From Mobula hypostoma (Eukaryota), in assembly GCF_963921235.1 (NCBI RefSeq), contig NC_086097.1:123692001-123756000 (forward strand): DNA of 64,000 bases, in the 5' to 3' direction. The stretch's first letter is position 1; every line of letters starts with the position of its first letter. Both the position numbers and the translations under genes were made by a program. The notes beneath the pieces were generated by a model, which was given only the letters and a program-made list of their open reading frames with translations, had not been told where the DNA came from and did no database searches. Positions 2,370 through 61,032 of the stretch are shown one piece after another.

Positions 2370-2493
2370 TTCTATGCACCTTGGTGCGGCCACTGCAAGA
2401 AATTGGAACCAATATGGGATGAGGTAGCTGCTGAAATGCATTCCATAGGGTCTCCTGTGAAAGTTGGGAAGATGGATGCAACAATTTATGCAG
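2370..2493 (+). CDS. TMX3: TMX3 internal coding exon with thioredoxin active site ([41 protein letters not shown])
   Basis: Polypyrimidine tract and ttttatttcAG acceptor at 2368-2369, GTgaac donor at 2494; 124 nt, phase 0 to 1; peptide has the CGHC motif and closely resembles vertebrate TMX3 as I recall it. Confidence 0.95.
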
Positions 2494-3134
2494 GTGAACA
2501 ATGCTTTTGGGTTTTGCATTGAATAATTGGTCCACATTTTTAAGGAAAAATAATGAATGTGACTGTCTATGGAACTAGAGGGACTAAAACCAGAGTTCCA
2601 CCATGTTACAGTTACTGAAGTCCCTTCACAAGAGAATTCCCTGAGAATCTGTGGTGATTAGTTTCTATTGTAATTTTAAAAATTATTTAGCTTTTTATTG
2701 TATGATAACATGGGAGCTTTAGAGACAAACTTGTATAATCATTTTCCAGATAATATTGAACAAAATCAATTCCGTTCTTTTCGGTAAAGGAAATGTATCA
2801 GATCTTGGAAATGTAAAATTAACCTGGAAATGTTCAGGTCAGCATCTTTGGAGGGAAGTGGTTATCTATTTAGATTTGCCTTTCATTAGAATTGAGGATC
2901 AGATGACAAGCTTAAAGATAAGATTGTGGTAAGGAGAGTCAGAAAGAGAAGATCTGTGGACGGATAGGAAGTTAAGAAACAAAAAGGGCAATATAGATTG
3001 AAAGAGAGTAGTTGACAGGTTACTGAACACCCTCTGGTGCCTCTCTTCCTTCCCTTTCTCCTATGGTCGACTTTCCTCTCCTGTCAGATTCCTCCTTCAA
3101 CCCTTATCTCTCCTATTACCTATTACCACCTAAC

Positions 3135-9239: not shown

Positions 9240-10811
9240 CAGTGCCTTTAAAAAGAATTCACCCCCTTTGGAGGTTTCCATGTTTTATTATTTACAACAA
9301 TGAATCACAGTGTATTTAATTTGGCTTTCTTTGACACTGATCAACAGAAAAAGACTCTTTCATGTCAAAGTGAAAACAGATCTCGAGAAAGTGATCTAAA
9401 TTAGTTAGAAATATAAAACACAAAATAATTGATTGCTTAAGTTTTCACTCCCTTCAACTCAGTATTTAGTAGATGCGCATTTGGCAGCAATTACAGCCTT
9501 AAGTCTGTGGATAGATCTGTATCAGCTTTGCACATCTGAACACTGCAACCTTTCCCCGTTCTTCTTTACAAAATTGTTCAAGCTCTGTCAGATTGCATGG
9601 GGATTGTGAGTGAGCAGCCCTTTTCAAGTCCAGCCACAAAATCTCAATTGGATTGAGGTTTGGACTCTGACTTAGCCTCTCCAGGACATTAACTTTGTTG
9701 TTTTTAGGCCATTCCTGTGTAGCTTTGGCTTTACACTTGGGGTTATTCTCTTGCTGGAAAACAAAACTTCTCCCTAGTCGCAGTTCTCTTGCAGACTGCA
9801 TCAGGTTTTCCTCCAGGATTTCTCTGTATTTTGCTGGATTCGTATTACCCTCTACCTTCTCAAGCCTTCCAGGGCCTGCTGCAGTGGAGCATCCCCACAG
9901 CGTGATGCGTTCACCACCATGCTTCACGGTAGGGATGGGTGTTTATGATGTTCAGTGTCTGGCTTAAGTCAAACATAGGATTTAGTCTGATGGCCGAAAA
10001 GCTCAATTCTGGTTTCATCAGACCATAGAACCATCTTCCAGCTGACTTCAGAGTCTCCCACATGCCTTCTGACAAATCATAGCCAAGATTTCATGTGTGT
10101 TTTTTTTTCCAACAGTGACTTTCTCTTTGCCATTTTCCCGTAAACTTGTGACTGGTGAAGCACCTGGGCAACGATTGTTGTATGCCCAGTCTCTCCCATC
10201 TCAGTCACTGAAGCTTATAACTCCTTCAGAGTTGTTTTAGGTATATTGATGGCCTCCCTCACTAGTTCCCTTCTGCACGGTCACTAAGTTTTTGAGGACT
10301 GCCTGCTCTAGGTAGACTACAGTTGTGCGATATTCTTTCCATTTCTTGATGATTGACTTAACTGTACACCGGGGATATTCAGTGACTTGGAAATTTTCTT
10401 GTATCCAACTCCTGACTTGTGCTTTTCAATAACCTTTTTGTGGAGTTACTTTGTCTTCATGATGTAGTTTTGCCAGGATACTGACTCACCAGCAGCTGGA
10501 CTTTCCAGATACAGGTGTATTTTTACTACAATCATTTGAAACACCTTGACTGAACTCAGATCTCCATTTAACTAATTACGTGACTTCTAAAACCAGTTAG
10601 CTGTACCAGTGATGATTTGGGGTGTCATATTAAAGGGGATGAATACTTGTGCAATGAGTTATTTTATGTTTTATATTTGTAATTCATTTAGATTACTTTG
10701 ATACGAAAGAAAGCCAAATTAAATCTACTGTGATTCAATGTTGTAAAATTATAAAAAATGAAAATTTCCAAGGGGGAGGGGGCAGTGTGTGAATACTTTT
10801 TATGGGCACTG
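9240..10811 (-). mobile_element. Tc1-like DNA transposon with decayed transposase
   Basis: TA-cagtgcc...ggcactg-TA termini with long inverted repeats; ORF 9499..9927(-) KHGG..ITLWGC..FQQENNPK..SQSPNLNPIE.LW, with the second and third catalytic Asp positions altered. Confidence 0.92.
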
Positions 10812-13402: not shown

Positions 13403-13448
13403 GTATTGCCTCTGAATTTGGTGTCCGAGGTTATCCAACTATCAAATT
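13403..13448 (+). CDS. TMX3: TMX3 coding exon (GIASEFGVRGYPTIKL)
   Basis: ccccAG acceptor, GTaagt donor; 46 nt, phase 1 to 2, in frame with previous exon; contains the GYPT cis-proline motif of thioredoxin folds. Confidence 0.95.
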
Positions 13449-15140
13449 GTAAGTTAAGATTTGTTGTATGTTTGTTATTGTATTGTGCCTTTGGTGTGAC
13501 AGAATATTGTTGAAGGTTTCCATTATGAATTGATTTGAATTGGAAATTGACTGAGTTACATGTAGAAAATTCCTGCAGCTATAAAGTATATTCTATTCAA
13601 ATTTAATTTACTTACATAGTTAAGAGAGGTCATAAATATAGGCTTTGTACATCGATTCAGTTAATCAGCATTAACTTCTTCTCCAAAGGGCATAGTTCAT
13701 GTTAAATTTGTCATTACTGCAGACATTAGTGGGATATAGAAAGCAATTACACAACTATTTGTTCACGTTTTTTATTAAAGGTCAACAAGGCTGAGATTAA
13801 TTACCTTGTTAATTGAGTTTTTGTGAAGCTGTGTGCTAGTTTGCCTGTTCATTTGTATGTTAAGATCTTAAACTTATTTTACTGTTTCACAGTTTCTTTT
13901 GTTAATCGTCAGTGGATGACTTAATATTTTTACATTTTTTTAAAACTCTATTTGCCTAGTTATTTAAATTGTCTGTGGTCTTTATGTAACTAGTTCCATT
14001 TCTTCTATGACTTACCATGCCACTATTGGAGAAACCTAGACGTACAATTTTATTGTTTCATTAAATAGAGTGGAAAATGTGAGGCTTGATGCAGGTGTTA
14101 AAGAGCACTGCCTATCACGTCGGCTTTTCAGAGAATACATATGTTTTCCATACTCTGCTTCTCTGGCCCATGCTGTATTTTGAGATTAGCTCTGATTGTT
14201 GTGGGTTCACTTTTTTATCATTTGTGCCAAACTTTATGGAAGGTACACATGACCAGTGTTCATGGTCACACTTCTAGCCTCCATACATACAATGCCAACC
14301 CAAAATGTCAACAGTTCCTTTCCTTTTTGCCCACAGATACACTTGATACACTGAGGTCCTGCAGCACATTGTCTGTTGCTCCACAATCATGATTGGTTCA
14401 TAACTTTCCAGAAGTGAAGTTGGGGGGGTGGGGGGGGTAACTAAATTATCTAGTATTACCTTTTCTTGAATGTGATTTTTTAATTAGTACATGTTCCAGT
14501 GAATTCTCATGTACAATGAAGCACTCATGTGAGAAGTACGATGATGGACTAAAGGTTGTGCTTCTAATGTGTAATATGTAATAAGCTTGGTTCAATCTAT
14601 TTTTAATCTCGCTTACACTTTGAAGCCAGCAACAATTTTAATATGAGAGCATCAGTGACTCAAATTTTAGTTCAGTTTCAAAATGATATGGATACAAGTT
14701 GTGGTTAATTTATCAGAAGGACTTGGTATCATGTAATTATTTATTTATTGTTATTTTTTCTTCTATTTCTGTATTTGCACAGACCGTCTTCTTTTGCACA
14801 TTAGTTGTCAGTCCTTGTGTGTAGTTTTCGTTGATTCTGTTATTTTTTTTGTTCTACTGTGAATGCCTGCAAGAAAATGAATCGCAAGGTAGTATATGGT
14901 GACATATAAGCATTTTGACAATAAAATTGCTTTGAACCTTCATAATTATGAAGAAGATTTACCAGGATGAAACTTGGATTAAAAAACATAAAGGTGGGTT
15001 GAGTGAGCTAGGGTTTTTCTCTCTGGAGAGAAAGAACATGAGAGGTAACTTGATAGAGGTGTACAAGATGATAAGAGATATTGATCGAATGGACAGCCCA
15101 AGATTTTTTCCCAGGATGAAAGTGACTAATACAAGGGACA

Positions 15141-15273
15141 AACAACAGGAATTCTGCAGATGCTGGAAATTCAAGCAACATACATCAAAGTTGCTGGTGA
15201 ACGCAGCAGGCCAAGCAGCATCTATAGGAAGAGGCGCAGTCGACGTTTCAGGCCGAGACCCTTCGTCAGGACA
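15141..15273 (-). mobile_element. Minimal PLE 3'-end insertion (hammerhead plus tail only) inside a CR1 3' fragment (~14950-15520)
   Basis: 14-bp TSD taatacaagggaca at 15127-15140 and 15274-15287; the insert stops just past the hammerhead core. Confidence 0.88.
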
Positions 15274-18200
15274 TAATACAAGGGACATGTCTTTAAGGCG
15301 ATTGGAGGAAAGTATAGCAGAATGTTAGAGGCAGATTTTTTACACAGAGAATGGTAGCTGCACAGAATGTGCTGCTACAAGTGGTGATAAAGGCAGATAT
15401 GTGAGGGACATTTAAGAGACTCTTAGATAGGCAGATAGATGAAAGAAAAATGGAAGGCTATGTGAGAGAGAAGGGATAGATTGATCTTCGAGTAGGTTAA
15501 AAGCCTTTCCTGCGCCATACTCTAATTAACTTTGAGCAAATTAAATCATTCTAAGCAATATTAGAAAGAAGCAGAAGATCATGGGTATCTCGCACGGTGT
15601 ATCTTTTCTACTATTCAATAATACCATGGTATGACTTGAGTTGGAAAAGTAAGACAATTAATCTATTTTATTGTAACCTAATAGCAGTACAGATCTAATG
15701 AAAAGAATGAGTTCAGTATATATTATTGATACAGGTTTCCCCTGCCATCCGAAGGTAAAGCGTTCCTATGTTCCTATGAAACGGTTCGTAAGCCGGAATG
15801 TCGTAAAGCGAAGAAGCAATTACCATTAATTTATATGGGAAAAATTTGTGAGCGTTCACAGACCCAAAAATAACCTACCAAATCATGCCAAATAACACAT
15901 AAAACCTAAAATAACAGTAACATATAGTAAAAGCAGGAATGATATGATGAATACACAGTCTATATAAAGTAGAAATAATCCCACTTTTCCACAATCATTG
16001 CCTGCACTGTTCAGTAACCTTTAAGCGATGAAGCTGCCAAATCATACCAAATAACACATAAAAATACACAGCCTATATAAAGTAGAAATAATGTATGTAC
16101 AGTGTAGTATCACTTACCAGAATCGAGAAGTCAGCTTGCCGAGCAAACTGATGATGGTGTGTTAGGCTGAGTCATCGGAGTCTGGGTGGTGCAGTGGCCC
16201 CCACCCTCTGGACAGCGAACCGATACCGATCCGCGAAGCACGCAGAGGTACAGCGGTGGCCGGGACGCACTCAGCACATCTTTAAGAAAAAAGCCAAAAT
16301 AAACAAGCTAATTAATTAGGTGCCGCCCGGCATGTACATGTCAGCCCAGATCAGAGGCGATGCAATCGGCAATTGCCTCTGATCTGGGCCGACATTTATG
16401 TGCCGGGCGGCACCAAATTAATTAAAGTTGCTGGTGAACGTAGCAGGCCAGACAGCATCTCTAGGAAGAGGTACAGTCAACGTTTCAGGCCGAGACCCTT
16501 CGTCAGGACTAACTGAAGGAAGAGTTAGTAAGAGATTTGAGAGGGGGAGGGGGAGATCTAAAATGATAGGAGAAGACAGGAGGGGGAGGGATGGAGCCAA
16601 GAGCTGGACAGGTGATTGGCAAAGGGGATATGAGAGGATCAGGGGACAGGAGGCCCAAGGAGAAAGAAAAGGGGGAGGGGGGAAAACACAGACAATGGGC
16701 AAGGGGTATAATGAGAGGGACAGAGGGAGGAAAAAGGAGAGAGAGAAAAAGAATGTGTGTATATAAATAAATAATGGATGGGGTACGAGGGGGAGGTGGG
16801 GCATTAGCGGAAGTTAGGGAAGTCGATGTTCATGCCATCAGGTTGGAGGCTACCCAGACGGAATATAAGTTGTTCCTCCAACCTGAGTGTGGCTTCAGCT
16901 TTACAGTAGAGCAGGCCATGGATAGACATGTCAGAATGGGAATGGGATGTGGAATTAAAATGTGTGGCCACTGGCAGATCCTGCTTTCTCTGGCGAACAG
17001 AGCGTAGGTGTTCAGCGAAACAGTCTCCCAGCCTGCATCGGGTCTCACCAATATATAGAAAGCTACACACTGGGAGCACCGGATGCAGTATACCACCCCA
17101 GCCGACTCACGGGTGAAGTGTCGCCCCACCTGGAAGGACTGTCTGGGACCCTGAATGGTGATGAGGGAGGAAATGTAAGGGCATGTGTAGCACTTGTTCC
17201 GCCTACAAGGATAAGTGCCGGGAGGGAGATTGGTGGGAAGGGATGGCGGGGGACGAATGGACAAGGAAGTCGCGTAGGGAGTGATCCCTGCAGAAAGCAG
17301 GGGGGGGGAGGGAAAGATGTGCTTGGTGGTGGGATCTCATTGGGGGTGGCGGAAGTTACGGAGAATTATATTTTGGACCCGGAGGCTGGTGGGGTGGTAG
17401 GTGAGGACAAGGGGAGTCCTATTCCTAGTGGGGTGGCAGGAGGATGGACTGAGAGCAGATGTGCGTGAAATAGGAGAGATGCGTCTGAGAGCAGAGTTGA
17501 TTGTGGAGGAAGGGAAGCCCCTTTCTTTAAAAAAGGAAGACGTCTCCTTCGTCCTGGAATGAAAAGCCTCATCCTGAGAGCAGATGCGGTGGAGACGGAG
17601 GAATTGCGAGAAGGGGATGGCAGTTTTGCAAGAGATAGGGTGGAAGCGGAATAATCCAGGTAGCTGTGAGAGTCCGTAGGCTTATAGTAGACATCAGTAG
17701 ATAAGCTGTCTCCAGAGATAGAAGCAGAAAGTTCAAGAAAGGGGAGGGAGGTGTCAGAAATGGACCAGGTAAACTTGAGGGCAGGGTGAAAATTGGAGGC
17801 AGAGTTAATGAAGTCAACTAGCTCAGCATGCGTGCAGAAAGCAGTGCCAATGCAGTCGTCGATGCAGCAAAAGAAAAGTGGGGGACAGATACCAGTATAG
17901 GCTTGGAACATGGATTGTTCCACAAAGCCAACAGAAGTATTTTGCATCAGTCTTCACTTGGGAAGACAGTAGTAGTTTGGTGAAAGTTCCAGGTGTCGGG
18001 GGCATGAAGTATATGAAGTTACCATTACTACAGAGGATCTTGAGAAACTGAAAGTGGTGGCTGAAGAGATTGTGGAGGCATTATTTATGATCTTTCAATA
18101 ATCACTAGATTCCGGAATGGCTCTGGAAAACTGGAAAATTGCAAATGTCACTCCACTCTTCAAGAAGGGAGAGAGGCAGAAGAAAGGAAACTATAGGCCA

Positions 18201-19504
18201 GTTAGTCTGACCTCAGTGGTTGGGAAGATGTTGGAATCAATTATTATGGATAAGGTCTCTGGGTACTCGGAGGCACATGATAAAATAGACATGGTTTCCT
18301 CAAGGGAAAATCATGCCTGCCAAATTTGTTGGAATTCTTTGAAGAAATAACTAGCAGGATAGACAAAGGAGAATTGGTTGATGTTAACTGGATTTTCAGA
18401 AGGCCTTTGGCAAGGTGCCACACCTGGGGCTGCTCAACAGGCTACAAGCCCATGATATTACAGGAAAGATTCTAGCATGGATAAAGCTGTAAAAATTTGG
18501 CAGGAAGCTAAGAGTAGGAATACAGGGAGCCTTTTCTTTTTGTTGGCTGCTGGTGACTCGTGGTGTTCCACAGTGGTCTGTGTTGAGATTGATGCTTTTT
18601 ACATTATATTTCAATGATTTGGATGATAGAATTGATGGCTTGGTTAAAGTTTGCGGATGACATAAAGATAGGTAGAGTAGTAGGGTGTTTTGACGAAGTA
18701 GAAAGGCTACAGAATACTTAGATTAAGAGAATAGGCAAAGAAATAGCAGATAGAATACAGTCGAGAAGTGTATGGTTGTGCCCGTTAAAGAAGAATTGAA
18801 AGGGTTGGCTATCTTCTAAATGGAAAGAAAATAGAAAAAAAAACTCAGGTGCCAAGGGACTTGGGATTCTTTGTGCAGGATTCCCTAAAGGTTAATTTGC
18901 AGGTTGAGTCTGTGGTGAGGAAGCCAAATGCGATGTTAGCATTCATTTCAGGAGGTCTAGTATATAAAAGCAAAGATGTAATGTTGAGACTTTATAAAGC
19001 ACTGGTGAGGCCTCAGTTGGAGTATTGTGAACAGTTTTGGGCCCCTTTTCTTAGAAAGGATGTGCTGAAACTGGAGAGGATTCAAAAGAGGTTCAAGAAA
19101 ATTATTCCAATTCAGGAAAATTATTCCAGGATTGGATGGTTTGTCATATGAAGAGCATTTGATGTCTCTGGGCTTGTATTCACTAGATTTCAGAAGAATG
19201 AGGGGTGACCTCGTTGAAACCTTATGAAATGATGAAAGGCCTTGATAGGATAGATGTGGAGAGGATGTTTTCTATGGTGGCAGAGTCTAAGACCAGAGGA
19301 CACAGCTTCAGAATAGAGGGGTGTCCTTTTAGAATGGAGACGAGGAGGAATTTCTTCAGCCAGAGAGTGGTGTATCTGTGGAATTCTTCGCTGCAGGCAG
19401 CTGTGAAGGTCAAGTCTTTATGTACAGTGCCTTTAAAAAGAATTCACCCCCTTTGGAGGTTTCCATGTTTTATTATTTACAACAATGAATCACAGTGTAT
19501 TTAA

Positions 19505-19742
19505 GCAACATACATCAAAGTTGCTGGTGAATGCAGCAGGCCAAGCAGCATCTATAGGAAGAGGCGCAGTCGACGTTTCAGGCCGAGACCCTTCGTCAGG
19601 ACTCAGTTAGTCCTGACGAAGGGTCTCGGCCTGAAACGTCGACTGCGCCTCTTTCTATAGATGCTGCTTGGCCTGCTGCGTTCACCAGCAACTTTGATGT
19701 ATGTTGCTTGAATTTCCAGCATCTGCAGAATTCCTGTTGTTT
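19505..19742. mobile_element. 238-bp hairpin mini-PLE
   Basis: Perfect 13-bp TSD acagtgtatttaa (19492-19504, 19743-19755); ~99-bp inverted arms around a 5-nt loop; empty site at 9307-9319 in the donor. Confidence 0.93.
19609..19645 (+). ncRNA. Minimal type-I hammerhead ribozyme motif
   Basis: agtc-CTGACGA-agg gtctcgg cct-GAAA-C-GTC-gact: conserved core, 3-bp stem II, palindromic ACGT stem III, stem I agtc/gact. Confidence 0.8.
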
Positions 19743-20558
19743 ACAGTGTATTTAATTTGGCTTTCTTTGACACTGATCAACAGAAAAAGACTCTTTCATG
19801 TCAAAGTGAAAACAGATCTCTAGAAAGTGATCTAAATTGGTTAGAAATATAAAACACAAAATAATTGATTGCTTAAGTTTTCACTCCCTTCAACTCAGTA
19901 TTTAGTAGATGCGCATTTGGCAGCAATTACAGCTTTAAGTCTGTGGATCTCGCCAATATATAGAAGGCCACATCGGGAGCACCGGACGCAGTATATCACC
20001 CCAGCCGACTCACAGGTGAAGTGTCGCCTCACCTGGAAGGACTGTCTGGGGCCCTGAATGGTCCCAGTCTGCGTCGGGTTTGAAAGCAGGATCTCCCAGT
20101 GGCCACACATTTTAATTCCACATCCCATTCCCATTCTGACATGTCTATCCACGGCCTCCTCTACTGTAAAGATGAAGCCACACTCAGGTTGGAGGAACAA
20201 CACCTTATATTCCGTCTGGGTAGCCTCCAACCTGATGGCATGATCATTGACTTCTCTCACTTCCACTAATGCCCCACCTCCCCCTCGTACCCCATCCGTT
20301 ATTTATTTTTATACACACATTCTTTCTCTCACTCTCCTTTTTCTCCCCCTGTCCCTCTGACTATACCCCTTGCCCATCCTCTGGTTCCCCCCCCCGCCCC
20401 GTCTTTCTCCCCGGACCTCCTGTCCCATGATCCTCTCATATCCCCTTTGCCAATCACCTGTCCAGCTCTTGGCTCCATCCCTCCCCCTCCTGTCTTCTCC
20501 TATCATTTTGGATCTCCCCTTCCCACTTTCAAATCTCTTACTAACTCTTCCTTCAGTT

Positions 20559-20595
20559 AGTCCTGACGAAGGGTCTCGGCCTGAAACGTCGACTG
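20559..20595 (+). ncRNA. Minimal type-I hammerhead ribozyme motif
   Basis: CTGACGA 20563-20569, GAAA 20583-20586, GTC triplet 20588-20590, stem I agtc/gact. Confidence 0.8.
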
Positions 20596-21716
20596 TACCT
20601 CTTCCTAGAGATGCTGCCTGGCCTGCTGCATTCACCAGCAACTTTGATGTGTGTTGCTTGAATTTCCAGCATCTGCAGAATTCCTGTTGTTTACCTAATT
20701 AATTAGCTTGTTTATTTCGGCTTTTTTTCTTAAAGGTATGCTGAGTGCGTTCCAGCTACTGCTGCATTCTCCGCGAATCGGTATCTGTCCGCAGCCTGGG
20801 GGTTGGGGTGGTGGGACACTGGGGTGTCATCTCATCGTCAATCAGGGCTGGCAGGTCATCTTCTTCTATGTCTGCCTGCCTCAATGTCGAAGATCGAGGT
20901 TCGTCGTCTGCTGTGGCTGATGTGGAAGGCTTGCTTGACTACTTAGCCTTGCGCATTTTTCTATCACACAGTTCTTTGTAAGCACTCAAACCATCTTACA
21001 GATATGCCCTAAACCGACGTACCCTTTCAAAATTAAAGTCGTACTTTATCATTGCAGCGAAAATCTCACGCAGTTGCTTCACGTTCAGTTCCTGGATGAC
21101 TTCACTTTCGCACTGCATTCGCTTTCATTTGTTATCCTTTCCTCTTCCAATTGCATCAGCTCTTCATCTATCAGTTCTTGGTCATGGGATGCCAAAACTT
21201 ATTCAACATCATCTTCATCAACTTCCACAAGCCAAACTCACTTTGTCCTTACTTCGTTCACCACGATCAAAACGCTTAATTACGTCTAGTTTTACGCTAA
21301 CTGTAACACCCTTACGAGCTCTTTCAGGCTTTTCCAATACCTTAGAACTTGCTAACGGCTGCTCACAGGCACGTGTTTAAGCAATGCCAGCGAGAATGCC
21401 ATTCCGAATCCGGGGGAGAGCGGCTGCTCGGGGTGCGCGCTGATTTTTTTATCGCATGCTGATTTTTTTCGCGCGCTGATTTTTTCCGTAATGGTGAAAG
21501 CACCTTCTGTTAGCGAGAACAGGTAACTAAAGTAGGTCTTTCGTAACAGTGAGGTTTCATAAAGCGAACGTTCGAAAAGTGGGGGGACACCTGTAATCTT
21601 GTACTTTTGAATTCATCTAGAATTTGTCCTTTGAAGTTACTCACCTGCATCAAGAGGTGATGCTTGATAAGTTGTGGCGTTTGCATTTGATCAGAATGTG
21701 TCTTTTGTATTGACAG

Positions 21717-21797
21717 ATTAAAGGGAGATCTTGCCTATAATTACAGAGGACCTCGTACGAAAGAAGATATAATTGAATTTGCTAACAGGGTGTCAGG
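21717..21797 (+). CDS. TMX3: TMX3 coding exon (LKGDLAYNYRGPRTKEDIIEFANRVSG)
   Basis: tgacAG acceptor, GTgagt donor; 81 nt, phase 2 to 2, in frame. Confidence 0.95.
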
Positions 21798-23225
21798 GTG
21801 AGTAAAATGGCCAGTTTTCTTTTAAAATCTTGGGTCAGTTGAGTTGGAAGCACTCTGGCCTTTGATGTCCCACACAGGGAAATGAGGACAAAAATCTAAG
21901 TTGTATTCTGCTAAAGGTTTGAGTGAGTACTGGATTATCAAAAGGTCATAACTTTTGGATGACACATTAGGTGCCCATTTTTCCCCCATAACTCCCCTGG
22001 GGTGGATGTAAAGATCATGCAAAGCAGAAAAAGCAGGAGAATTTGAAGTTGAAGTGTCTGTGTCAGCTGTATTTAATGAATTACATGCAAAGCTATGAAA
22101 AAGGGTTAAACATTCCTCATTTCGTCATCCTAATTTGAACATTTTGAATTAAAATTTGAGAACAGGCCAAAGCTGTTTCAAAGCAAATCAGAATTTGGGT
22201 CAGATGATGAGGAGCCTTCAGACCCAACAGTCCTTGAGATTGAATGGAAAGTGAATAGAGGTAGTTTAGTGAAGGGTGGATGTTTGTAAAGGTATGGCAC
22301 TTTCCTAGGTATGTCATTCAGAATCAGATTTATTATTATTGACATATGTCATAAAATATTTTGCAGCAGTACAGTGCAATTTATAAAATATACTATAAAC
22401 TACAATAAAAATGTATATAAAACATTAAATAAGTAAGCAAATATAGTGAGGTAATGTTCATTAGTCCATTATCCTTTCAGAAATCTGAAGGAGGAGGAGA
22501 AAAAGCTGTTCCTAAAATGTTGGCTGTGAATCTTCTTGCTCCTATACTGCCTGTCTGATGGTAGTTATGAAAAGAGGGTATGTCCTGACTAGTTGGGGGT
22601 CCTTTTTGAGGCATTGGCTTTTGAAGATGTCCTCAGTGCTGGCGAGGCTAATGTCCATGACTAATTTCTGCCGGATCTTTCAATCTGATTCCACTTAATT
22701 TGCAGCAATGCTCAAATAATACTCTATCTACTTGTTCAGAAGTCCTTGTGTTTTGGCATCTGGCTCACTGGGTATTAATTTCCACCCTCCCTCTCTTGCC
22801 AAGGTCCCTGTTCCTGTATTCTCTTGTGAAACTTTTGAAGTTGACTGGAAAATATACTCCTGAGTAACATCCAAAAAAAAGTGTTGTGTTAATTGGAATA
22901 ATTTCCAGTAGTCGACTCTGTTCCAAGCTTGCCTGAGTAATGAAGTTTCACTGTATTTTAGTTTTGCATATAATCTAATTGAATCTATGTGTTAAATTTG
23001 CAGGTCTGTCCTTTAGAATAGACATGTTTTTGGTGTTTGTTAAATAGAAGCAAGGAAATGTAAGTCATACGAACAGTGGCTGCATCGGGAAAGGTTGAAG
23101 AGTTTAATTTATTGTGCACCCAAGTTAATCGCATTTAAGTGTGGCATGTGAAACCAGCAATAAATGTTTACTTGAACTTTGACAAGTTATTATTTTGATA
23201 CTTTTTTCATTCGTTTTATTAATAG

Positions 23226-23325
23226 GCCGCTGGTGCGATCACTTACCACTCCTCAACTTTTTGACCATTGGCAAAAGAGGCATCCGGTTTTCTATGTTTA
23301 TGTTGGAGGTGAATCTCCACTGAAG
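23226..23325 (+). CDS. TMX3: TMX3 coding exon (PLVRSLTTPQLFDHWQKRHPVFYVYVGGESPLK)
   Basis: aatAG acceptor, GTatga donor; 100 nt, phase 2 to 0, in frame. Confidence 0.93.
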
Positions 23326-23789
23326 GTATGAAAATAGTATTTATTTTAAACATAGAGCTGCTTTGATCACCTTTTCCTAATTGCATGCAATAACTTTAGA
23401 AACTTTGAGGAATATAAATGTAAATAAAACTTTTGCTCAAGGTCTATCCTGTTTACACTGACCAATCCAGAGAAATCAATGATTTCTATCATGTGTGACT
23501 GAAAGGATACAAGTGTCTCTTGTCTCATGGACATTGTGCTGCTCAAGAGAATATCAAACCTTGCTGTTTTCTTTCAAGCATGCTGGTTTTAGGACTGAAT
23601 GCTAGACCAACCAATGCTGTACAAACATGTGCTTGGAAATGATAACACATTGGAACAGAATTGGTCCTCTGAGTGTACTCGCCATTCCATCATGACTGAT
23701 TTATTATCCCTATCATCCCTATTTTCCTGCCTTCACTCTGTACCTTTAATAAGTTATTGCTTTGATACATTTTTCACTCTCTAATTGAA

Positions 23790-26378
23790 AAGCTTTTAAA
23801 AAAAACAACAGAAGACAAAGAAAAAAGCCATAAGGAGGGAAAAGATGAAATACTAAGGTAAGCTAGCTAATAATATCAAAGAAGATACCAAAAGTTTTTT
23901 GAGATATAGAAAGAGTAACAGAGAGGTGAGATTAGATGTCGGACTGCTGGAAAATTACGCTGGAGAGATAGTAATGGGGTTCAAAGAATGAGAATCAGGT
24001 TTAATATCACCGGTGTATGTCGTGAAATGCCGGGCGACCTTAGTAAGTATTTTGCGCTAGTCTTCACTGTGGAAGGCAGTAGCAGCTTGCTGGAAATTTG
24101 AGAGTGTCAATGGGGAGAAGTGAGCTTAGTTGCAATTACTAAGGACAAAGTGCTTGAAAAGCCAAAAGATCTGAAGGTAGATCAGTCACATGAACCAGAT
24201 AGACTACAGGTTTCTTTAAGAGGTGGCTGGGGAGATTGTGGAGGCATTAGTAATGATCTTTCAAGAATCTCTAGATTCTGGAATTGTACCGGAGGATTGG
24301 AAAATTGCAAATGTCACTCCACTCTTTAAGAAGGGAGGGAGGCAGAGGAAAGGAAATCTTAGGCCAGTTGGCCTGATTTCACTGGTTGGGAAGATGTTGG
24401 AGTCTATTAAGGATGAGGTCTCATGGTACTTGAGGTACATGATAAAGTAGGCCGCCAAAGTCAGCATGGTTTCCTCAAGGGAAAATCTTGCCTGATGAAT
24501 CTTTAGATTTAGATTGGATTATGAGGACACGCGGTCCTCTTTTATTGTCATTTACTAATGCATGCATTAAGAAATGATACAATGTTCCTCCAGAATGATA
24601 TCACAGAAACACAAGATAAACCAAGACTTGAAAAACTGACAAAAACCACATAATTGTAACATATAGTTACAACAGTGCAAAGCAATACCATAATTTGATA
24701 AAGAACAGACCATGGGCATTGTAAAAAAAAAAGTCCCATCATCTCACACAGATGGTAGAAGGAAGAAAAAACTCTCCCTGCCATGAGCTTCCAGCGCCGC
24801 AAACTTGCCGATGCAGCCAACTCTTGAGTCCGTCCAAAAACTTCGAGCCTCCGATCAGCCCTCCGACACCAAGCACCATCTCTGCCGAGCACTTCGACCC
24901 CGGCCCCGGCCGCTAAACAATAGGCAAAGCCGAGGATTTGGGGCCTTCCCCTCCGGAGATTCTCGATCGCACAGTAGCAGCGGCAGCGAAGCGGCATTTC
25001 AGAAGTTACTCCAGGTGTTCCTCCGTGCTTCTCACATCTGTCCCCATCAAATCAGGATTGTGCATGGTGCCTACTTACAAATACGATATCATTTCTGAGC
25101 GGCCGTGCGCGCTGCGTTGCGCTGCCATCTTCTTCTCCCCTCTTTTGGAATTTTTTAAAGCAATAATGAACAGGATAGTCAAAGGAGAATCTGGATGTTG
25201 TGAACTTGAAATTTCAGAAGGCCTTTGACAAGGTACCAAACAGGAAGCTGCTAACAAGTTAAGAGCCCATGTTATCACAGGAAAGTTACTAGCATGGATA
25301 GAGCATTGGCTGATTGGCAGGATGCAAAGAGTGCAACCTTTTCTGGTTGGCTGCCAGTGACTAGTGGTATTCTGCAGGGGTTGATGTTGCGATTGCATCT
25401 TTTTATGTTATATGTCAATGGTTTGGATGATGGAATTGATGTCTTTGTGGCCAAGTTTGTGGACGTCACAAAGATAGGTGGAGGGGCAGGTAGTGTTCAG
25501 GAAGTAGGGAGGCTGCAGAAAGACTGAGACAGTTCAGGAGAATGGGCAAAGATGTGGCAAATGGAGTATAGTGTCGGGACATGTATGGTCTCGCACTTTG
25601 GTAAAAGAAACAAAAATGCAGACTATTTTCTAAATGGACAGAAAATTCAAAAATCCAAGGTACAAAGGGACTTGGAAGTCCTCGTGCAGGATTCCCTAAA
25701 TGTTAACTTGCAGGTTGAGTTGGTGGTGAGGGAGGCAAATACAACTTTAGCATTCATTTCAAGAGGACTAGAATATAAAAGTGAGAATGTAATGCTGAGG
25801 CTTTATAAGGCACTGGTGGGGCCTCACTTGGAGTATTGTGAGCTGTTTTCGACCCCTTATCTAAGAAAGGAGGTGCTGACATTGGAGAGGATTCAGTGGA
25901 GGCCCTTGAGAATGATTCCAGGAATGAAAGGGTTATCGTATGAGGAACGTTCGATGGCGCTGGGCGTGTACTTGCTGGAATTTAGAACAATAGGGGTGGA
26001 ATCTCATTGAATCTATTGAATGTTGAAAGGCCTAAATAGAGTTTATGTGGAGAGGATATTTCCTATAGAGGGGGAAGTCTAGGACCAGAGGGCTCATTCG
26101 TAGAGGGACGTCCATTTGGAATGGAAATGAGGAATTTCTTCAGCAAGAGGGTGGTGAATCTGTGGAATTTGTTGCCACAGGTGGCTGTGGAGGCCAGGTC
26201 ATTGGGTGTATTTAAGGTGGAGGTTGATAAAGTTCTTGATTAGTCAGGATGTGAATGGTTACGGGGATAGGCAGGAGAATGGGGTTGAGAGAGAAAATGG
26301 ATCAGCCTTGATGAAATGGCGGAGCAGATTCAATGGGCCAAATGGCCAAATTCTGCTCCTATTTTTTATGGTCTTATG
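23790..26378 (+). mobile_element. CR1 LINE fragment (RT to 3' end)
   Basis: ORFs 24223, 25294 and 25552 carry CR1 RT motifs; 3' end ctcctattttttatggtcttatgg. Confidence 0.85.
24505..25141 (-). mobile_element. Young GC-rich SINE/L2-tailed non-autonomous retroelement inserted in CR1
   Basis: Interrupts CR1 between aatcttt and ttggaatt; short-repeat tail agatttagatt and tttatt at the left end; CpG-rich head at the right end. Confidence 0.65.
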
Positions 26379-28625
26379 GTAACCTTTGATGCCTTGACTA
26401 ATCAAGAACCTATTAAACTCCACCTTAAATATAATCAATGACTTGGCCTCCACAGCCATCTGTGGCAATGAATTCCACAGATTCACTCCCCTCTGGCTAA
26501 AAGAAATTCCTCCTCATCTCTGTTCTAAATGGATGTCCCTCTATTCTGAGGCTGTGCCCTCTGGTCCTAGACTCACCTACTTAGGAAGCGTCCTCCCCCC
26601 ATATCCACTGTTTTCAGACCTCTCAATATTCGATAGGTTGCAATGAAATACAGCCTTGTTCTTCTAAACTCCAGCGATTACAGACTCGGAGCCATCAAAT
26701 GCTCTGTATACGTTATCTCTTTCATTCTTGGACTCATTCTCATGAACCTCCTCTGGACCCTCTCCAATACCAACACCTCTTTTCTTCGATATGGAGCACA
26801 CAATTGCTCGCAATACTCCATGTAGTCTGACCAATGTCTTGTAGAGCCTCAGTATCACACCCTTGCTCTAATATTCTAGTCCTCTCAAAATGAATGCTAG
26901 CGTTGCATTTGCCTTCCTTACCCTGACTCAACCTGCAAGTTAATCTTTAGGGAATCTTGCACAAAGTCTCCCAAGTCCCTTTGCAAATATTGTCCCTAGT
27001 AAATATTGTATGCGTTTATTCCTTCTACCAAAGTGCATGACCATACACTTCCCAATGCTATATTCCATCTGCCGCTCCTTTTTCCATTCTCCCAATCTGA
27101 CTAAGTCCTTCTGCAGACTCCTTGCTTCCTCAACACTATCTGCCCCTCCACCTGTCTTTGTCTTGTCTGCAAACTTGGCCACAAAGCCATCAAATCCGTC
27201 ATCCCAACCGTCGATTTGTAATGTGAAAAGAATCCCAATACAGAGTTCTACAGAACACCACTAGTCACCAGCAGCCAACCAGAAAAGACCCCCTCTATTC
27301 TCACTTCTTCCCTCCTGCCAGTCAACCAATCTTTTATCTATGCTAGTATTTTTCCTGTAATACCATGGGCTCTTATCTTGTTAAGCAAACTCATGGAGGC
27401 ACCTTGTCAAAAGCCTTATGAAAATCCAAGTAAACAGCATCCACTGACTCTCCCATGTCTATCCTGCCTGTTATTTCCTCAAATAATCGCGACAGATTTG
27501 CCAGGCAAGATTTTCCCTTAAGGAAACCATGTTGGTTCAGGTGAATCTGGCCTACTTTATCATGTACTTCAAGTACCCTGAGACCTCATCCTTAATAGAC
27601 TCCAACATCTTCCCGACCAGTGAAATCAGGCTAACTGGCTTGAAATTTCCTTTCCTCTGCCTCCCTCCCTCCCTTAAAGAGTGGAGTGACATTTGGAATT
27701 TTCCAGTCCTCCGGAACCATTCCAGAATCTAGTGATTCCAAGATCATTACTAATACCTCCACAATCTCCCCAACCACCTCTTAAAGCAACCTGTAGTCTA
27801 CCTGGTTCATGTGACTGATCTACCTTCATACCTTTCAGCTTCTCAAGCACCTTGTTCTTAGAAATAGCAACTATGCTCACTCCTGCCCATGGACACACTT
27901 GAATTTCCGGCATACTGCTAGTGCCTTCCACATGAAGTCTGACGCAAAATACTTATTAAGTTCGACCACCATTTCTTTGTTCCCTAGTACTATCTCTCCA
28001 GCGTAATTTTCTTGTGGTTGGATATCTACTCTCGCCTCTCTTCTACTCTTTATATATCTGAACAATCTTTTGGTATCCTCTTTTATATTACTGGCTAGCT
28101 TATCTTCTCATTTCAACTCTTCTCTCCTTGTAACACAAAAATACTTGAGGAACTCAACAGGCTAGGCAGAATCTTTGGAAAAGAGTACAGTCAAAGTTTC
28201 AGGTCAGGACCCTTCATTAGGATTGTGTGTTTTTGCATGTGTTGCTTAGATTTCCAGCATCTGCAGATTTTCTCTTGTTTTCTCTTCTTGTGTTTTTTTT
28301 AGTTGCCTTCTGTTGGTTTCTAAAAACTTCTAAATTCCCATTATTTTTCTGACATGTTATATGCCCTCTATTTTGCTTTTTTTTGTGCTTGACTTCCATT
28401 GTCATCCATGGTTGTCTTATCCTCCCTTTAGAATAATACTTCATCTTTGGGATATATCTATCCTGCACCTTCGAATTACCCCCAGAAACTCCAGTCATTG
28501 CTGTTCTATTGTCATCCCTGCTAGTGTCCCTTTCCAATCAATTTTGGACAGCTTCTCTCTCATGCCTCTGCAAACCGCTTTACTCTACTGTAGTACTGAT
28601 ACATCTGACTTTAGCTTCTCTCTCT
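26379..28625 (-). mobile_element. CR1 LINE fragment; its extreme 3' end appears displaced to ~23640-23752
   Basis: ORFs 26259, 26664, 26940 and 27877 (-) carry CR1 motifs. Confidence 0.85.
28132..28279. mobile_element. Old mini-PLE with inverted structure
   Basis: Minus-strand PLE repeat followed by plus-strand tail atttccagcatctgcagattttctcttgttt; imperfect TSD ttctctccttgt/ttctcttcttgt. Confidence 0.7.
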
Positions 28626-29875: not shown

Positions 29876-30526
29876 TAAAAACGCAGATGCAGATGCTGGA
29901 AATTCAAGCAACACACATCAAAGTTGCTGGTGAATGCAGCGGGCCAGGCAGCATCTCTAGGAAGAGGTACAGTCGACGTTTCGGGCTGAGACCCTTCGTC
30001 AGGACTAACTGAAAGAAGAGCTAGTAAGAGATTTGAAAGCGGGAGGGGGAGGGGGAGATCCAAAATGATAGGAGAAGACAGGAAGGGGAGGGATGGAGTC
30101 AAGAGCCGGACAGTTGATTGGCAAAATCAACTCCCCGCCTCCCCCTCGTACCCCATCCGTTATTTATTTATATACACACATTCTTTTTCTCTCTCTCCTT
30201 TTTCTCCCTCTGTCCCTCTCACTATACCCCTTGCCCATCCTCTGGGTTTCCCCCCCTCCCCCTTTTCTTTCTCCCTGGGCATCCTGTCCCATGATCCTCT
30301 AATATCCCTTTTGCCAATCACCTGTCCAGCTCTTGGCTCCATCCCTCCCCCTCCTGTCTTCTCCTATCATTTTGGATCTCTCCCTCCCCCTCCCACTTTC
30401 AAATCTCTTACTAGCTGTTCTTTCAGTTAGTCCTGACGAAGGGTCTCGGCCCGGAACATCGACTGTACCTCTTCCTAGAGATACTGCCTGGCCTGCTGCG
30501 TTCACCAGCAACTTTGATGTGTATTG
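29876..30526. mobile_element. Inverted (hairpin) PLE made only of terminal repeats
   Basis: Minus arm 29876-30126, plus arm to 30526; 14-bp TSD atagtatgtccact/atagtatatccact (29862-29875, 30527-30540). Confidence 0.9.
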
Positions 30527-31032: not shown

Positions 31033-31110
31033 GAGAAGTTCTTTGAAGTGGCCTCAGAAATGATTGTGTACACCTACTTCTTTTCTGCTTCAGAGGATGC
31101 TTTGCCGCAG
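31033..31110 (+). CDS. TMX3: TMX3 coding exon (EKFFEVASEMIVYTYFFSASEDALPQ)
   Basis: cccttcAG acceptor, GTaaac donor; 78 nt, phase 0 to 0; lies inside ORF 30973..31164. Confidence 0.93.
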
Positions 31111-42436: not shown

Positions 42437-43790
42437 TAGTATTCATTTCTACTGATGTTATCCTGGATAGATTCTGCCATGAATGAACTGTTGAGGATGA
42501 GGACAAATAGGTCTATCTCTTCTGTTGGTTTAAGATTCTTCCAAACCAATTTGATGAACAGTGAAGTTCACCACCCAAAATGCATGCTATATACTACTAC
42601 CACAATTTCTTCCAGGAGTTTTTCAACACTGAGCTGTTGAGATGCATTGATTCATCAGCTGAGAGGAAGTGATAGGTGATAATCAGGAGAGGCTTTCCTT
42701 GCATGTGTTTGGCATAACAAACAAATCAAGAACAGGTGATTACTTAGGGTGAGAAAGCTAATGGGGTTAAGATAGGAGAATGGGGTTCAGAGGGATAATA
42801 AATCAGCCATGATGGAATGGTGGAGCAGATTAAATGGGCTGAATGCCCTAATTCTGCTCCTATGTCTTATGTTGCTCTCACTCAATGTGCCACAACACAA
42901 TCGCAGTTGAATTCAGCAAGACCAATGTGCTGATTATTGACTGCAGGAGAAGAAAGCCAGAGGTGATCAGAAGTGGAGAGGGTCATCAAATTTTAATTCC
43001 TTCGTGCTATCATTCCAGAGGACCCGTCCTGGGACCAGCACCTAAGTGCAAGTACGAAGAAAGCAAGACATATGTTTTTTTTTATGTCTGTGAAGATGGA
43101 TGCAAAGAATTTTTATGCCGTTTGCTTTTTCAGCATCATTAGTTATTCCATCCATACTTATAAAGGACTTTTTCCCCTTCACTAGTCTTTCATAATTTGT
43201 TCTTGCTTGCCATCAGTTTACTCTCATTCTGCCTTTTCTTTTCCAATCTCTTAGGACTCCTTCTTGGGCCTACTGTTACTTCTGGCATTTTTAGGAGCCT
43301 TTTCCTGATTCTAGACTTCAAAGTCAATACTAGAGACTGTCAGGGCTACTTGTGCCTGTATATGGTTGTGCAGACTTTTCTGTAGCTCTGCCTAGCTAGA
43401 GGAATGGAACATTCCCAGGGACTATGCTTATGGCCATGTATGTTTATGTGAAGATTACCATGCCAGTCTGTTGCATCATGATTTTTATAGAATATTGTCC
43501 TAGTTTAGACATCAGTGCCCAGCTGAGTTGCAACTTTCCCCAGTGAGGAAGGTTCTGCAAGGTTAACTTGGTTGAGAGTATCCTTGTTAAATGCCCACCA
43601 TCCAAAAAGATGACGTACGTATTCTATCAGAATTGCTTCTAAAAATCTTTGGTTTTTTTGTTTTCACAAAATTCATTGATTACTTCCCTCCCTTTTAAAA
43701 ACGGCTCTTACTTCAGGTTTGCAGAAGTGCTATTACTTCACTACAGAATATTCAAACCCTTCTGAGTTTACTGTGATACTTTTCCACCAG

Positions 43791-43857
43791 GATATCACTG
43801 TCCAGGAGCTTCCCGCTGTGTTGGTGTTCAAAGATGGAACCTACTACACGTATGATG
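43791..43857 (+). CDS. TMX3: TMX3 coding exon (DITVQELPAVLVFKDGTYYTYD)
   Basis: ttttccaccAG acceptor, GTgagt donor; 67 nt, phase 0 to 1; PAVLVFKD motif. No further exon found before the window end. Confidence 0.93.
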
Positions 43858-59253: not shown

Positions 59254-61032
59254 ACACGAGAAATTCTGCAGATGCTGGAAACTCAAGCAACACACATCAA
59301 AGTTGCTGGTGAACGCAGCAGGCCAGGCAGCATCTCTAGGAAGAGGTACAATCGATGTTTCGGGCCAAGACCCTTTGTCAGGACTAACTGAAGGAAGAGC
59401 TAATAAGAGATTTGAAAGTGAGAGGGGGAGGGCGAGATCCAAAATGATAGGAGAAGACAGGAGGGGGAGGGATGGAGCCAAGAGCTGGACAGGTGATTAG
59501 CAAAAGGGATATGAGAGGATCATGGGACAGGAAGCCTAGGGAGAAGGAAAAGGAGTGGGGGGATCCCAGAGGATGGGCAAGGGGTATAGTCAGAGGGACA
59601 GAGGGAGAAAAAGGAGAGAGACAGAAAGAATGTGTGTATATAAATAAATAATGGATGGGGTACGAGGGGGAGGTGGGGCATTAGCGGAAGTTAGAGAAGT
59701 CAGTGTTCATACCATCAGGTTGGAGGCTATCCAGAAGGTGGTGTTCCTCCAACCTGAGTGTGGCTTCATCCTTACCACCATTCAGGGCCCCAGACAGTCC
59801 TTCCAGGTGAGGCGACACTTCACCTGTGAAAACTTCTCGCAATTCCTCCGTCTCTGCCGCATCTGCTCTTAGGATGAGGCTTTTCATTCCAGGACGAGGG
59901 AGATGTCCTCCTTTTTTAAAGAAAGGGGCCTCCCTTCCTCCACTATCAACTCTGCTCTCAAACGCATCTCACCCATTTCACGCACATCTGCTCTCACTCC
60001 ATCCTCCCACCACCCCACCAGGAATAGGGTTCCCCTGGTCCTCACCTACCACCCCACCAGCCTCCGGGTCCAACATATTATTCTCCATAATTTTCGCCAC
60101 CTCCAACGGGATCCCACTGCTAAGCACATCTTTCCCTCCCCCCTCTGCTTTCCGCAAGGATCACTCCCTAGGCGACTCCCTTGTCCATTCGTCCCCCCCA
60201 TCCCTCCCCACCGATCTCCCTCCTGGCACTTATCCTTGTAAGCGGAACAAGCGCTACACATGCCCTTACACTTCCTCCCTTACCACCATTCAGGGCCCCA
60301 GACAGTCCTTCCAGGTGAGGCGACACTTCACCTGTGAGTCGGCTGGGGTGATATACTGCGTCCGGTTCTCCCGATGTGGCCTTCTATATATTGGCAAGAC
60401 CCGACGCAGACTAGGAGATTGTTTTGCTGAACACCTACGCTCTGTCCGCCAGAGAAAGCAGGATCTCCCAGTGGCTACACATTTTAATTCCACATCCCAT
60501 TCCCATTCTGACATGTCTATCCACGGCCTCCTCTACTGTAAAGATGAAGCCACACTCAGGTTGGAGGAACAACACCTAATATTCCGTCTGGGTAGTCTCC
60601 AACCTGATGGCATGAGCATTGACTTCTCTAACTTCCACTAATGCCCCACCTCCCCCTCGTACCCCATCCGTTATTTATTTATATACACACATTCTTTTTC
60701 TCTCTCTCTCTCCTTTTTCTCCCTCTGTCCCTCTGTCTATACCCTTTGCCCATACTCTTGGTTTTCCCCCCCTCCCCCTTTTTCCTTCTCTCTGGGCCTC
60801 CTGTCCCATGATCCTTTCATATCCCTATGCCAATCACCTGTCCAGCTCTTGGCTCCATCCCTCCCCCTCTTGTCTTCTCCTATCATTTTGGATCTCTCCC
60901 TCCCCCTCCCACTTTCAAATCTCGTACTAACTCTTCCTTGAGTTAGTCCTGACGATGGGTCTTGGCCCGAAACGTCGACTGTACCTCTTCCTAGAGATGC
61001 TGCCTGGCCTGCTGCATTCATCAGCAACTTTG
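59254..61032. mobile_element. Inverted-end PLE inside the Gypsy 3' LTR (plus arm has RT end and GIY-YIG)
   Basis: TSD ctctgtgtatacataa (59238-59253, 61033-61048); ORF 59826..60641 ends [42 protein letters not shown]. Confidence 0.92.
60945..60981 (+). ncRNA. Minimal type-I hammerhead ribozyme motif
   Basis: CTGACGA 60949-60955, stem II gggt/gccc, GAAA 60969-60972, GTC 60974-60976. Confidence 0.75.

Follow-up and report, generated by a model that had tools for sequence, protein, structure and literature searches.

Hammerhead ribozyme motifs lie in sense orientation within introns of a TMX3-like gene in a 64-kb stretch of ray DNA (the window: all 64,000 nucleotides that were analysed), and two of them share one intron. 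This arrangement raises the question of whether the two copies could join into an active ribozyme and cut the pre-mRNA of their host. The sense motifs are very probably ordinary minimal hammerheads of a Penelope-like element (PLE), dead-on-arrival passengers of the intron that are masked by antisense arms, and the host intron would not be cut to any meaningful extent. This explanation draws on insertion anatomy, TSDs, an empty site and the orientation of the gene, which are shown, and on predicted folding; from these we infer the function in the element and the lack of an effect on the host.

Hammerhead motifs in the window

A sliding comparison with 19609-19645, accepting at most 14 mismatches, recovered 15 motif copies in the 64-kb window, 4 on the + strand and 11 on the − strand. 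The + copies at 19609-19645, 20559-20595 and 60945-60981 have the layout AGTC-CTGACGA-A-GGGTCTCGGCCY-GAAA-CGTC-GACTG; the first two are identical and the third differs at 3 positions. The sense motifs, together with the twin that lies next to the first of them, are as follows.

19609..19645, + strand: minimal type-I hammerhead motif, H17 = C19640, G10.1.U11.1, in the right arm of an inverted pLTR-only insertion
19567..19603, − strand: antisense twin of the 19609 motif, pairing with 19609-19645 on the + transcript
20559..20595, + strand: minimal type-I hammerhead motif with a G10.1.U11.1 pair; its H17, C20590, is 1128 nt upstream of the following TMX3 exon
30429..30465, + strand: broken sense motif (A13G, G16.2A) in the inverted insertion 29888-30538, with an intact antisense twin at 29970-30006
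60945..60981, + strand: sense motif, H17 = C60976, G10.1-C11.1, within the 5' part of insertion 59251-61040, which is inverted; antisense twin at 59349-59385

In the standard hammerhead numbering, the core CUGACGA is followed by one extra base, stem II, GAAA, C15.2-G16.2, U16.1 and C17. Stem I is formed by AGUC/GACU plus a U.G pair and is 4-5 bp long and open-ended (type I), and stem II has 4 bp with a 4-nt loop and is paired in 100% of cells across the 15 copies. Stem III is a loop-less A15.1-C-G-U16.1 palindrome without helix III, with ACGU present in 11 of the 15 copies. The extra base between positions 9 and 10.1 is A, or T in the 60945 copy. Nine of the 15 copies, including 19609, 20559 and 60945, have an unchanged core (C3 U4 G5 A6 N7 G8 A9 / G12 A13 A14 A15.1 / U16.1 H17). 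The pair next to it is G10.1-C11.1 in seven copies and G10.1.U11.1 in eight, 19609 and 20559 among them; 60945, which carries G10.1-C11.1, is the best-preserved sense motif.

The full minimal-hammerhead descriptor (core, stem II of at least 3 bp, palindromic insert, stem I of at least 4 bp) gave 7 matches in 64 kb, 3 on + (C3 at 19613, 20563 and 60949) and 4 on − (C3 at 16506, 19599, 30002 and 47014), with a mean of 0.005 matches in 200 dinucleotide shuffles, and a plain sequence pattern gave 12 matches against 1.14 expected; the copies form one repeat family, so their occurrences are non-independent in both chance counts. Pattern matches at 13884-13912 and 37814-37855 failed the stem tests and were rejected as hammerheads.

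An earlier note, made from the sequence alone, had listed three intact + copies, a degenerate + copy and eight − copies. All 12 are real. The three + copies pass the descriptor and are sense to the TMX3-like pre-mRNA, their cleavage-site cytosines are the H17 positions that it gave, the degenerate copy is the one at 30429-30465, and the eight − copies were found within 2 nt (5445-5481, 15237-15273, 16474-16510, 19567-19603, 29970-30006, 46982-47018, 59349-59385 and 61253-61289). 'Intact' holds by the descriptor, with the reservation that 19609 and 20559 have G10.1.U11.1 in place of G10.1-C11.1. The list had missed three older − copies (938-974, 28188-28224 and 41126-41162) and a 3' half-copy near 40160, in the sense insertion 40104-40237. 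The model search proposed in the same note succeeded with the structural descriptor and failed with Rfam, which returned no hammerhead family among 5 matches in the window at E<=1, a miss that would be expected for a motif without helix III. Rfam miRNA matches at 19563-19649 and 16336-16397 fell far below gathering scores and reflect long palindromes.

The host gene

All eight protein matches to the host gene were TMX3-like proteins from sharks and rays, the best from Mobula and Hemitrygon. Six + strand exons are collinear with a ray TMX3-like protein over residues 46-210, with 90-100% identity; residues 211-462 were not found in the 64-kb window.

2371..2494, + strand: TMX3-like exon with the WCGHC active site
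13403..13449, + strand: TMX3-like exon preceding intron 13450-21717, in which 19609 and 20559 lie
21718..21797, + strand: TMX3-like exon downstream of intron 13450-21717; a GT..AG skip connects it to the 23226 exon
23226..23326, + strand: TMX3-like exon
31033..31110, + strand: TMX3-like exon
43788..43856, + strand: last TMX3-like exon found

The 19609 and 20559 motifs have intron 13450-21717 in common and lie 950 nt apart in it, and the 60945 motif lies beyond the last exon found. Contigs from 4 of 24 listed sequencing runs were compared with the window; no run is recorded as RNA, and RNA-like status is the tool's guess. The joint from 21796 to 23225 across GT..AG was seen in 3 of 3 RNA-like runs (2 studies) and in 0 of 1 DNA-like run. 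This joint and the TMX3-like exons on + indicate that the gene is read on +, with 19609 and 20559 in one intron; the joint itself belongs to the neighbouring intron rather than the motif-bearing one, and the runs may not carry these insertions. A>G differences in the contigs numbered 25 in the DNA-like run and 28-30 in the RNA-like runs, and these similar counts give no sign that the hairpins are edited. The contigs of the 4 runs, a form of data that does not reveal RNA ends, gave no positions at which many molecules start or stop.

The element that carries the motifs

Judged from sequence, the motifs sit in the pLTRs of a Neptune-like Penelope element, in introns of the + strand TMX3-like gene, and the element context and motif features together bear out their earlier description as PLE pLTR minimal type-I hammerheads with a loop-less palindromic stem III. 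In the long copies, all of which are broken, coding frames upstream of the motif contain a YIDD-like RT motif, a thumb, a CX4CX2C linker and GIY-YIG. Frames with the YIDD-like motif and thumb lie at 17337-17950 and 6321-6934, the linker reads CRRNKCYTC in 16830-17336, and the GVIYC..YIG motif lies at 60345, in a copy that has lost one linker Cys.

60144..60641, + strand: PLE linker and GIY-YIG endonuclease frame, decayed

The order is thus that of EN+ PLEs (RT, C-terminal GIY-YIG endonuclease, then pLTR), as read in decayed copies and with RT recognized by motif. ESM Atlas best matches scored 0.96, with GIY-YIG on 13-22% of their members. In Pfam, the GIY-YIG match stayed below cut-off (13.9 bits versus 22.6, E 0.07) and no RT family matched the element frames. 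A CX2-5CxxC linker between RT and EN is described as defining the Neptune and Nematis clades (PMC8557442), and the zinc-finger linker seen here points to one of these two.

In the 3' pLTR, ~100 nt before the end of the tail, the motif has the same orientation as the PLE ORF. Element copies have two end points, at about 20645-20656 and at 20692; loose contig ends at 20692 numbered 24 in run X1 and 33 in run X6. The family covers 8,694 bp, or 13.6% of the window, with one motif per 4.3 kb, and it is likely to be very abundant in the host cartilaginous-fish genome.

Insertion anatomy

The 15 motifs and the half-motif fall into 12 insertions, 4 of which have pLTR arms in both orientations. At 9 of the 12 boundaries tested there is a candidate TSD of 10-17 bp with at most 1 mismatch, at 1 an 8-bp candidate and at 2 none. 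The motifs 19609 and 20559 belong to separate insertions with their own TSDs, 19505-19742 having nested later into 16425-20692.

19505..19742, unstranded: single PLE pLTR insertion of 238 bp, with an inverted arm (−) at 19505-19603 and a direct arm with tail (+) at 19604-19742
16412..20705, unstranded: composite PLE insertion 16425-20692 (4.3 kb) with its 13-bp TSD copies at 16412-16424 and 20693-20705, one mismatch
16425..18050, − strand: left arm of the composite, consisting of disrupted RT-thumb-EN coding sequence and a pLTR whose hammerhead, at 16474-16510, has U as H17
19945..20062, − strand: inverted piece of endonuclease-coding sequence at the right arm's 5' junction
20082..20692, + strand: right arm of the composite, a PLE 3' end with GIY-YIG C-terminus, pLTR, hammerhead and tail

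The smaller insertion is flanked by a 13-bp TSD at 19492-19504 and 19743-19755. Its empty site is present at 9307-9319, in a paralogous stretch, and the insertion is younger than a 98-99% identical duplication. The composite lies within a palindromic element. Its left arm is about 92% complementary to 20082-20648 (~570 nt), and the arms enclose a copy, 97-99% identical, of the stretch of the preceding intron at about 5.9-9.5 kb of the window. Over its first 200 nt the left arm has 8 mismatches to the right arm versus 19 to the 5.4-kb paralogue, and from about 17000 on it is 99% like that paralogue. The composite may have arisen by priming at both target ends with a template switch onto a nearby older PLE copy.

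Insertions 29888-30538 and 59251-61040 are likewise inverted and have TSD candidates. Each of the four sense motifs arrived in an inverted-arm insertion and so has an antisense twin further upstream within that insertion.

Predicted folding and masking

Folding was computed with ViennaRNA at 37 °C, whose nearest-neighbour predictions leave out tertiary contacts, proteins, hnRNP coating and kinetics. With the antisense arm included, the probability of stem I at 19609 was at most 1e-15, compared with 0.85-0.91 when the arm was removed; stems I and II then formed at a probability of about 0.9. All 37 motif positions were predicted to pair with the upstream arm 19567-19603. This hairpin was the MFE structure in 5 of 5 transcript prefixes tested, from 19625 on, and at ~105 bp it is predicted to be complete before 20559 is transcribed. 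At 20559, stem I had a probability of 2e-4 to 8e-4 in its local context, and no intact unmasked sense partner for this motif lies within 40 kb. Net duplex energies of the four sense arms with their upstream twins were predicted at −169, −827, −328 and −671 kcal/mol, the value of −827 belonging to a 536-bp duplex between the 20559 arm and the left arm of the composite, and 30429 and 60945 were predicted to pair with their twins at 36 of 37 and 35 of 37 positions. At a distance of at least 3.1 kb upstream, the twin of 20559 is less sure to pair in vivo than the arms of the adjacent 19609 hairpin.

When a 19609/20559 double hammerhead was forced, it cost 153 kcal/mol relative to the free ensemble in 19480-20620, which includes the arm; without the arm (19605-20620) the cost was 23 kcal/mol, part of which is the model's multiloop penalty. 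For two free 45-nt strands, an inactive duplex was predicted at −32 kcal/mol and was thereby favoured over the double hammerhead at −11 kcal/mol. The earlier note had suggested that these copies could dimerize and cut the host pre-mRNA unless adjacent inverted arms sequester them. The first half of that statement is unsupported in view of the predicted masking of 19609 at every position as it is transcribed and of the energy of the forced dimer. Its escape clause is favoured by the predictions, the 19609 arm lying directly upstream and 20559, 30429 and 60945 also having upstream antisense arms.

By analogy with other PLEs, two pLTR motifs in a tandem PLE transcript would associate by pairing of their ACGU palindromes, with stem I strands exchanged between them, and would cut after C17; this cleavage of element RNA would be slow, and would probably occur only with bound PLE protein. 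The copies in TMX3 introns would be passengers decaying mainly at CpG. In the pre-mRNA, the antisense arm would be transcribed first and so take the sense motif into a long duplex; the 19609/20559 dimer would not form, and cutting of the host intron would not reach a relevant level.

Conservation among copies

None of the 11 stem pairs had changed on both sides in 15 young, closely related copies, a set with little power, and 500 of 500 shuffles of these copies reached the observed pairing. Changes concentrated at CpG: in the stems they affected 15 of 60 CpG cells versus 4 of 210 non-CpG cells, and in the flank 11 of 30 versus 78 of 675. Non-CpG core cells had changed less often than non-CpG flank cells (7/135 versus 78/675, p=0.03; cells not independent), a comparison that became 2/108 versus 30/540 (p=0.14) without the 3 old copies; counted as distinct changes per column, the core had 6/9 and the flank 33/45. 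The conservation and covariation check that the earlier note had proposed thus goes against the dimer idea at the scale of the window, albeit with little power, as no pair covaries and the core does not stand clearly above the flank.

The catalytic G8 and G12 had changed in 2 of 30 CpG cells, fewer than at other CpG positions, and C11.1 had changed in 8 of 15 copies. Retention of G8 and G12 fits selection, most simply in source elements rather than in these copies. The family consensus keeps five CpGs and all 11 core bases across at least two subfamilies with diverged upstream sequence. Further family copies were sought with a 20-nt anchor downstream of the motif; none of the 28 loci found (1 viral, 27 metagenome) had the family context.

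Alternative explanations

It is highly improbable that a 19609 and 20559 double hammerhead cuts TMX3 pre-mRNA and thereby lowers or regulates its expression, even though the core is complete in each motif, with both stem I and stem II and the ACGU palindrome present, a nested dimer can be drawn within the shared intron without a pseudoknot, and intronic ribozymes are able to tune splicing, as reported for CPEB3 (PMC10919898). Such cleavage is unlikely because of masking, a low intrinsic rate and timing. The 19609 motif would already be in its hairpin when 20559 is transcribed, the energetic cost of the dimer is large and even free strands favour the inactive duplex, both partners carry G10.1.U11.1, and they stem from separate insertions, one nested later. 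The 1128 nt from C20590 to the next exon would be covered in less than 20 s at the mammalian rate of 3.5-4.1 kb/min (PMC10919898), set against slow minimal-hammerhead dimers. In published work, PLE minimal hammerheads had low activity as dimers and none as monomers (PMC4209133), in vitro cleavage was seen for 1 of 9 dimers of Xenopus retrozymes (bioRxiv 10.64898/2026.07.22.740005), and the anole PLE hammerhead cleaved only with protein, with no RNA-seq reads reported to begin or end at its site (PMC11167929); splicing is reported to withstand slow intronic ribozymes and to be aborted by fast ones (Dye 2006, Fong 2009, as cited in PMC2995048 and PMC10919898). Might the motif then be a vestige that has kept the hammerhead letters and lost cleavage even in element RNA? 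This is doubtful, though it carries some weight. The lack of covariation, the missing helix III, a stem II of just 4 bp and G10.1.U11.1 in 8 of 15 copies would fit, as would the independence of anole PLE insertion in vitro from hammerhead cleavage (PMC11167929) and the spread of Naiads without canonical hammerheads (PMC8557442). A vestige is harder to reconcile with a consensus in which 11 of 11 core bases and the five CpGs are kept across the subfamilies, and with related motifs that cleave as dimers (PMC4209133) or with protein (PMC11167929).

The remaining alternatives concern the strand on which copies persist, and one of them involves a signal beside the motif, judged by the splice-acceptor consensus.

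20535..20560, + strand: splice-acceptor-like signal, comprising a branch-point-like sequence, a pyrimidine tract and an AG that overlaps the 5' strand of stem I

None of the seven insertions with a single full-length motif is sense (at 878, 5382, 15140, 28128, 41065, 46922 and 61197; p=0.016), and an upstream twin is present at all four sense motifs. CR1-like loci show no such bias, with 6 sense and 4 antisense (Fisher p=0.035; 12 matches reduced to 10 by merging one split and one duplicated locus). The antisense excess suggests that sense copies could be non-neutral, through cleavage or through the acceptor-like signal. If cleavage were the cause, unmasked hammerheads would be active in host introns (in trans, with another sense copy, perhaps with PLE protein), active enough in pre-mRNAs to be selected against, and unmasked sense copies would be purged so that only antisense or twin-masked sense copies persist. 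The reported depletion of retrozymes from Xenopus introns (bioRxiv 10.64898/2026.07.22.740005) agrees with this account, which we nevertheless consider improbable: the excess is post hoc and comes from one gene; counting the sense half-motif insertion 40104-40237 changes it to 1 of 8 sense (p=0.07; p=0.066 against CR1-like loci); across all motifs it is 4 of 15 sense (p=0.12); 3 of the 7 single-motif insertions are old and broken; and the PLE mechanism itself generates inverted structures, which accounts for a twin without selection. The cryptic acceptor would explain the same strand bias. That sense copies act on the host through this branch-point, pyrimidine and AG signal ending in stem I, as a cryptic 3' splice site rather than by cleavage, is unlikely but not negligible. 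All 10 long copies examined carry the signal before stem I, the older subfamily at 938-974 among them, and in D. virilis the 5' end of helix I marks where the Penelope intron stops (PMC4209133). One contig of run X6 joins 20256 to 20559; this joint, from one contig in 1 of 4 runs and with ends TC..TT, is too weak to show splicing. Among the 15 of 213 joints listed, none connects a TMX3 exon to the motif, and TCAGTT at 20553-20558 resembles an initiator and may instead mark a start site.

The function of PLE hammerheads is called unclear in PMC8557442. At the density of copies seen here, a genome-wide strand-bias test would be well powered, and depletion of unmasked sense copies with intact cores would be population-level evidence for cleavage in vivo. 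Were the purging account true, the family would offer a genome-scale natural test of minimal-hammerhead activity in vivo, legible in a strand bias that varies with whether the core is intact and whether a twin is present.

Relation to known systems

The motifs are of the PLE minimal-hammerhead kind known since 2014; this ray PLE family joins that list and shows why intronic sense copies need not harm the host. As described for the pLTRs of Xena, Poseidon and Neptune (Cervera and de la Peña 2014, PMC4209133), they combine a pLTR position, a full core and a 4-5-bp helix I with an extra base between A9 and 10.1, a palindromic 15.2-16.2 without loop 3, and mostly single scattered copies with some opposite-strand pairs 100-700 bp apart. 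They differ in stem II, which has 4 bp and a 4-nt loop here and 7-8 bp in Schistosoma, and in the G10.1.U11.1 of 8 of 15 ray copies. Cartilaginous fish are not named in the searched parts of that paper's text and supplement. Apart from one preprint that reports retrozymes in a chondrichthyan, our literature searches found no paper on retrotransposon hammerheads of cartilaginous fish, although Repbase or Dfam entries, supplements and subscription papers may list the family, and none on orientation bias of ribozymes in introns.

Poseidon PAc of Anolis carolinensis (Frangieh et al. 2024, PMC11167929) is likewise a vertebrate PLE with a pLTR hammerhead near the 3' insertion end, an optional tail, AT-rich targets and two end points; the ray family differs in its Neptune/Nematis-type zinc-finger linker, and protein-assisted cleavage has been shown for PAc. 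Non-LTR retrozymes also have PLE-derived type-I hammerheads and are reported in one chondrichthyan genome (bioRxiv 10.64898/2026.07.22.740005). The ray copies were rejected as retrozymes: the window holds no head-to-tail tandem units, and copies are solo or inverted with separate TSDs. Domesticated intronic ribozymes (the amniote RECK and CTCL hammerheads and the HDV-like CPEB3 ribozyme; PMC6155905, PMC10919898) similarly place a ribozyme motif sense to the host pre-mRNA in an intron. Those are single, conserved and active as monomers, whereas the ray copies are young repeats with TSDs, partner-dependent and masked; the lack of helix III and the recent origin of insertion 19505-19742 relative to the duplication go against domestication here.

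Inverted pLTRs, TSDs, a tail at one end, host DNA captured between pLTRs and an empty site are also described features of PLE insertions in Adineta vaga (Arkhipova et al. 2013, PMC3846280) and in Craig et al. 2021 (PMC8557442). The composite insertion departs from these in that its captured ~3 kb derive from a site 11 kb away in the same gene, within the preceding intron. The start of the captured segment falls in an older PLE copy, pointing to a template switch guided by homology.

A composite insertion carrying captured intron DNA

The composite PLE insertion (16412-20705) has inverted pLTRs, the terminal repeats of Penelope-like elements, and a 13-bp TSD, and it interrupts a MITE-like element at an AT-rich site. 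Inside it, approximately 3 kb of the preceding intron (5.9-9.5 kb) is duplicated at 97-99% identity. The duplicated segment comprises PLE body, a CR1 piece and unique DNA, contains no exons and stops at 9512/19948, where a short stretch partly matches the PLE fragment. The intron copy apparently arose when the template was switched to an older PLE copy that lies 11 kb upstream. The composite may instead reflect an assembly error, but the donor stretch and its copy are distinguished by later insertions. An 834-bp insertion is present in the donor stretch and missing from the copy at 19375/19376.

Features of the donor stretch and target site
8357-9190, solo-LTR-like insertion, 834 bp, TG..CA ends
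16198-16424 and 20693-20808, the two parts of the split MITE-like element, which is palindromic; hairpin at 16309-16424, outer arms 78% inverted

The TMX3-like pre-mRNA also contains a near-perfect hairpin of around 105 bp (19499-19713; 96% complementary), and inverted arms of around 500 bp lie at 16.4/20.1 kb and likewise at 59.3/60.5 kb; hairpin and arms could form dsRNA open to editing or to processing into small RNAs.

Hammerhead variation and copy ends

Among the 15 hammerhead copies in the window, C11.1 is changed from C to T in 8, whereas G12, which belongs to the same CpG, is changed from G to A in only 1. This imbalance within one CpG suggests that a G.U subfamily variant was propagated from an active source element.

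The 5' ends of five short copies (15272, 19603, 19604, 28224 and 41162) lie about 6 nt or less from the 5' edge of stem I and do not coincide with the cleavage site; these ends could mark a start site or an intron end. Near stem I, TCAGTT is initiator-like. In all 10 long copies examined, stem I is overlapped by a branch-point-like sequence and a pyrimidine tract with AG (20535-20560 and equivalents); the older subfamily copy at 938-974 is among these 10. Of the 15 contig joints displayed, 3 end at 20559-20561. In two short older insertions, the tail piece is opposite in orientation to the hammerhead-bearing piece.

Short older pLTR-only insertions
28128-28283, candidate TSD of 12 bp
40104-40237, candidate TSD of 10 bp

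Other repeats

Additional repeats in the window
25351-27274, inverted pair of CR1-like fragments, about 900 nt with 75% similarity
56681-58867, decayed frames of an LTR retrotransposon, comprising a gag that has a zinc knuckle plus RT and integrase-like pieces

From their motifs, we take the frames at 56681-58867 to be Gypsy-like; Pfam returned only a sub-threshold eIF3g match to their zinc knuckle. A fragment at 55988-56434 (+), with zero matches in a Pfam scan, is presumably an RTE-like LINE and that at 9499-9942 (-) presumably a Tc1-like transposase, both also judged by their motifs.
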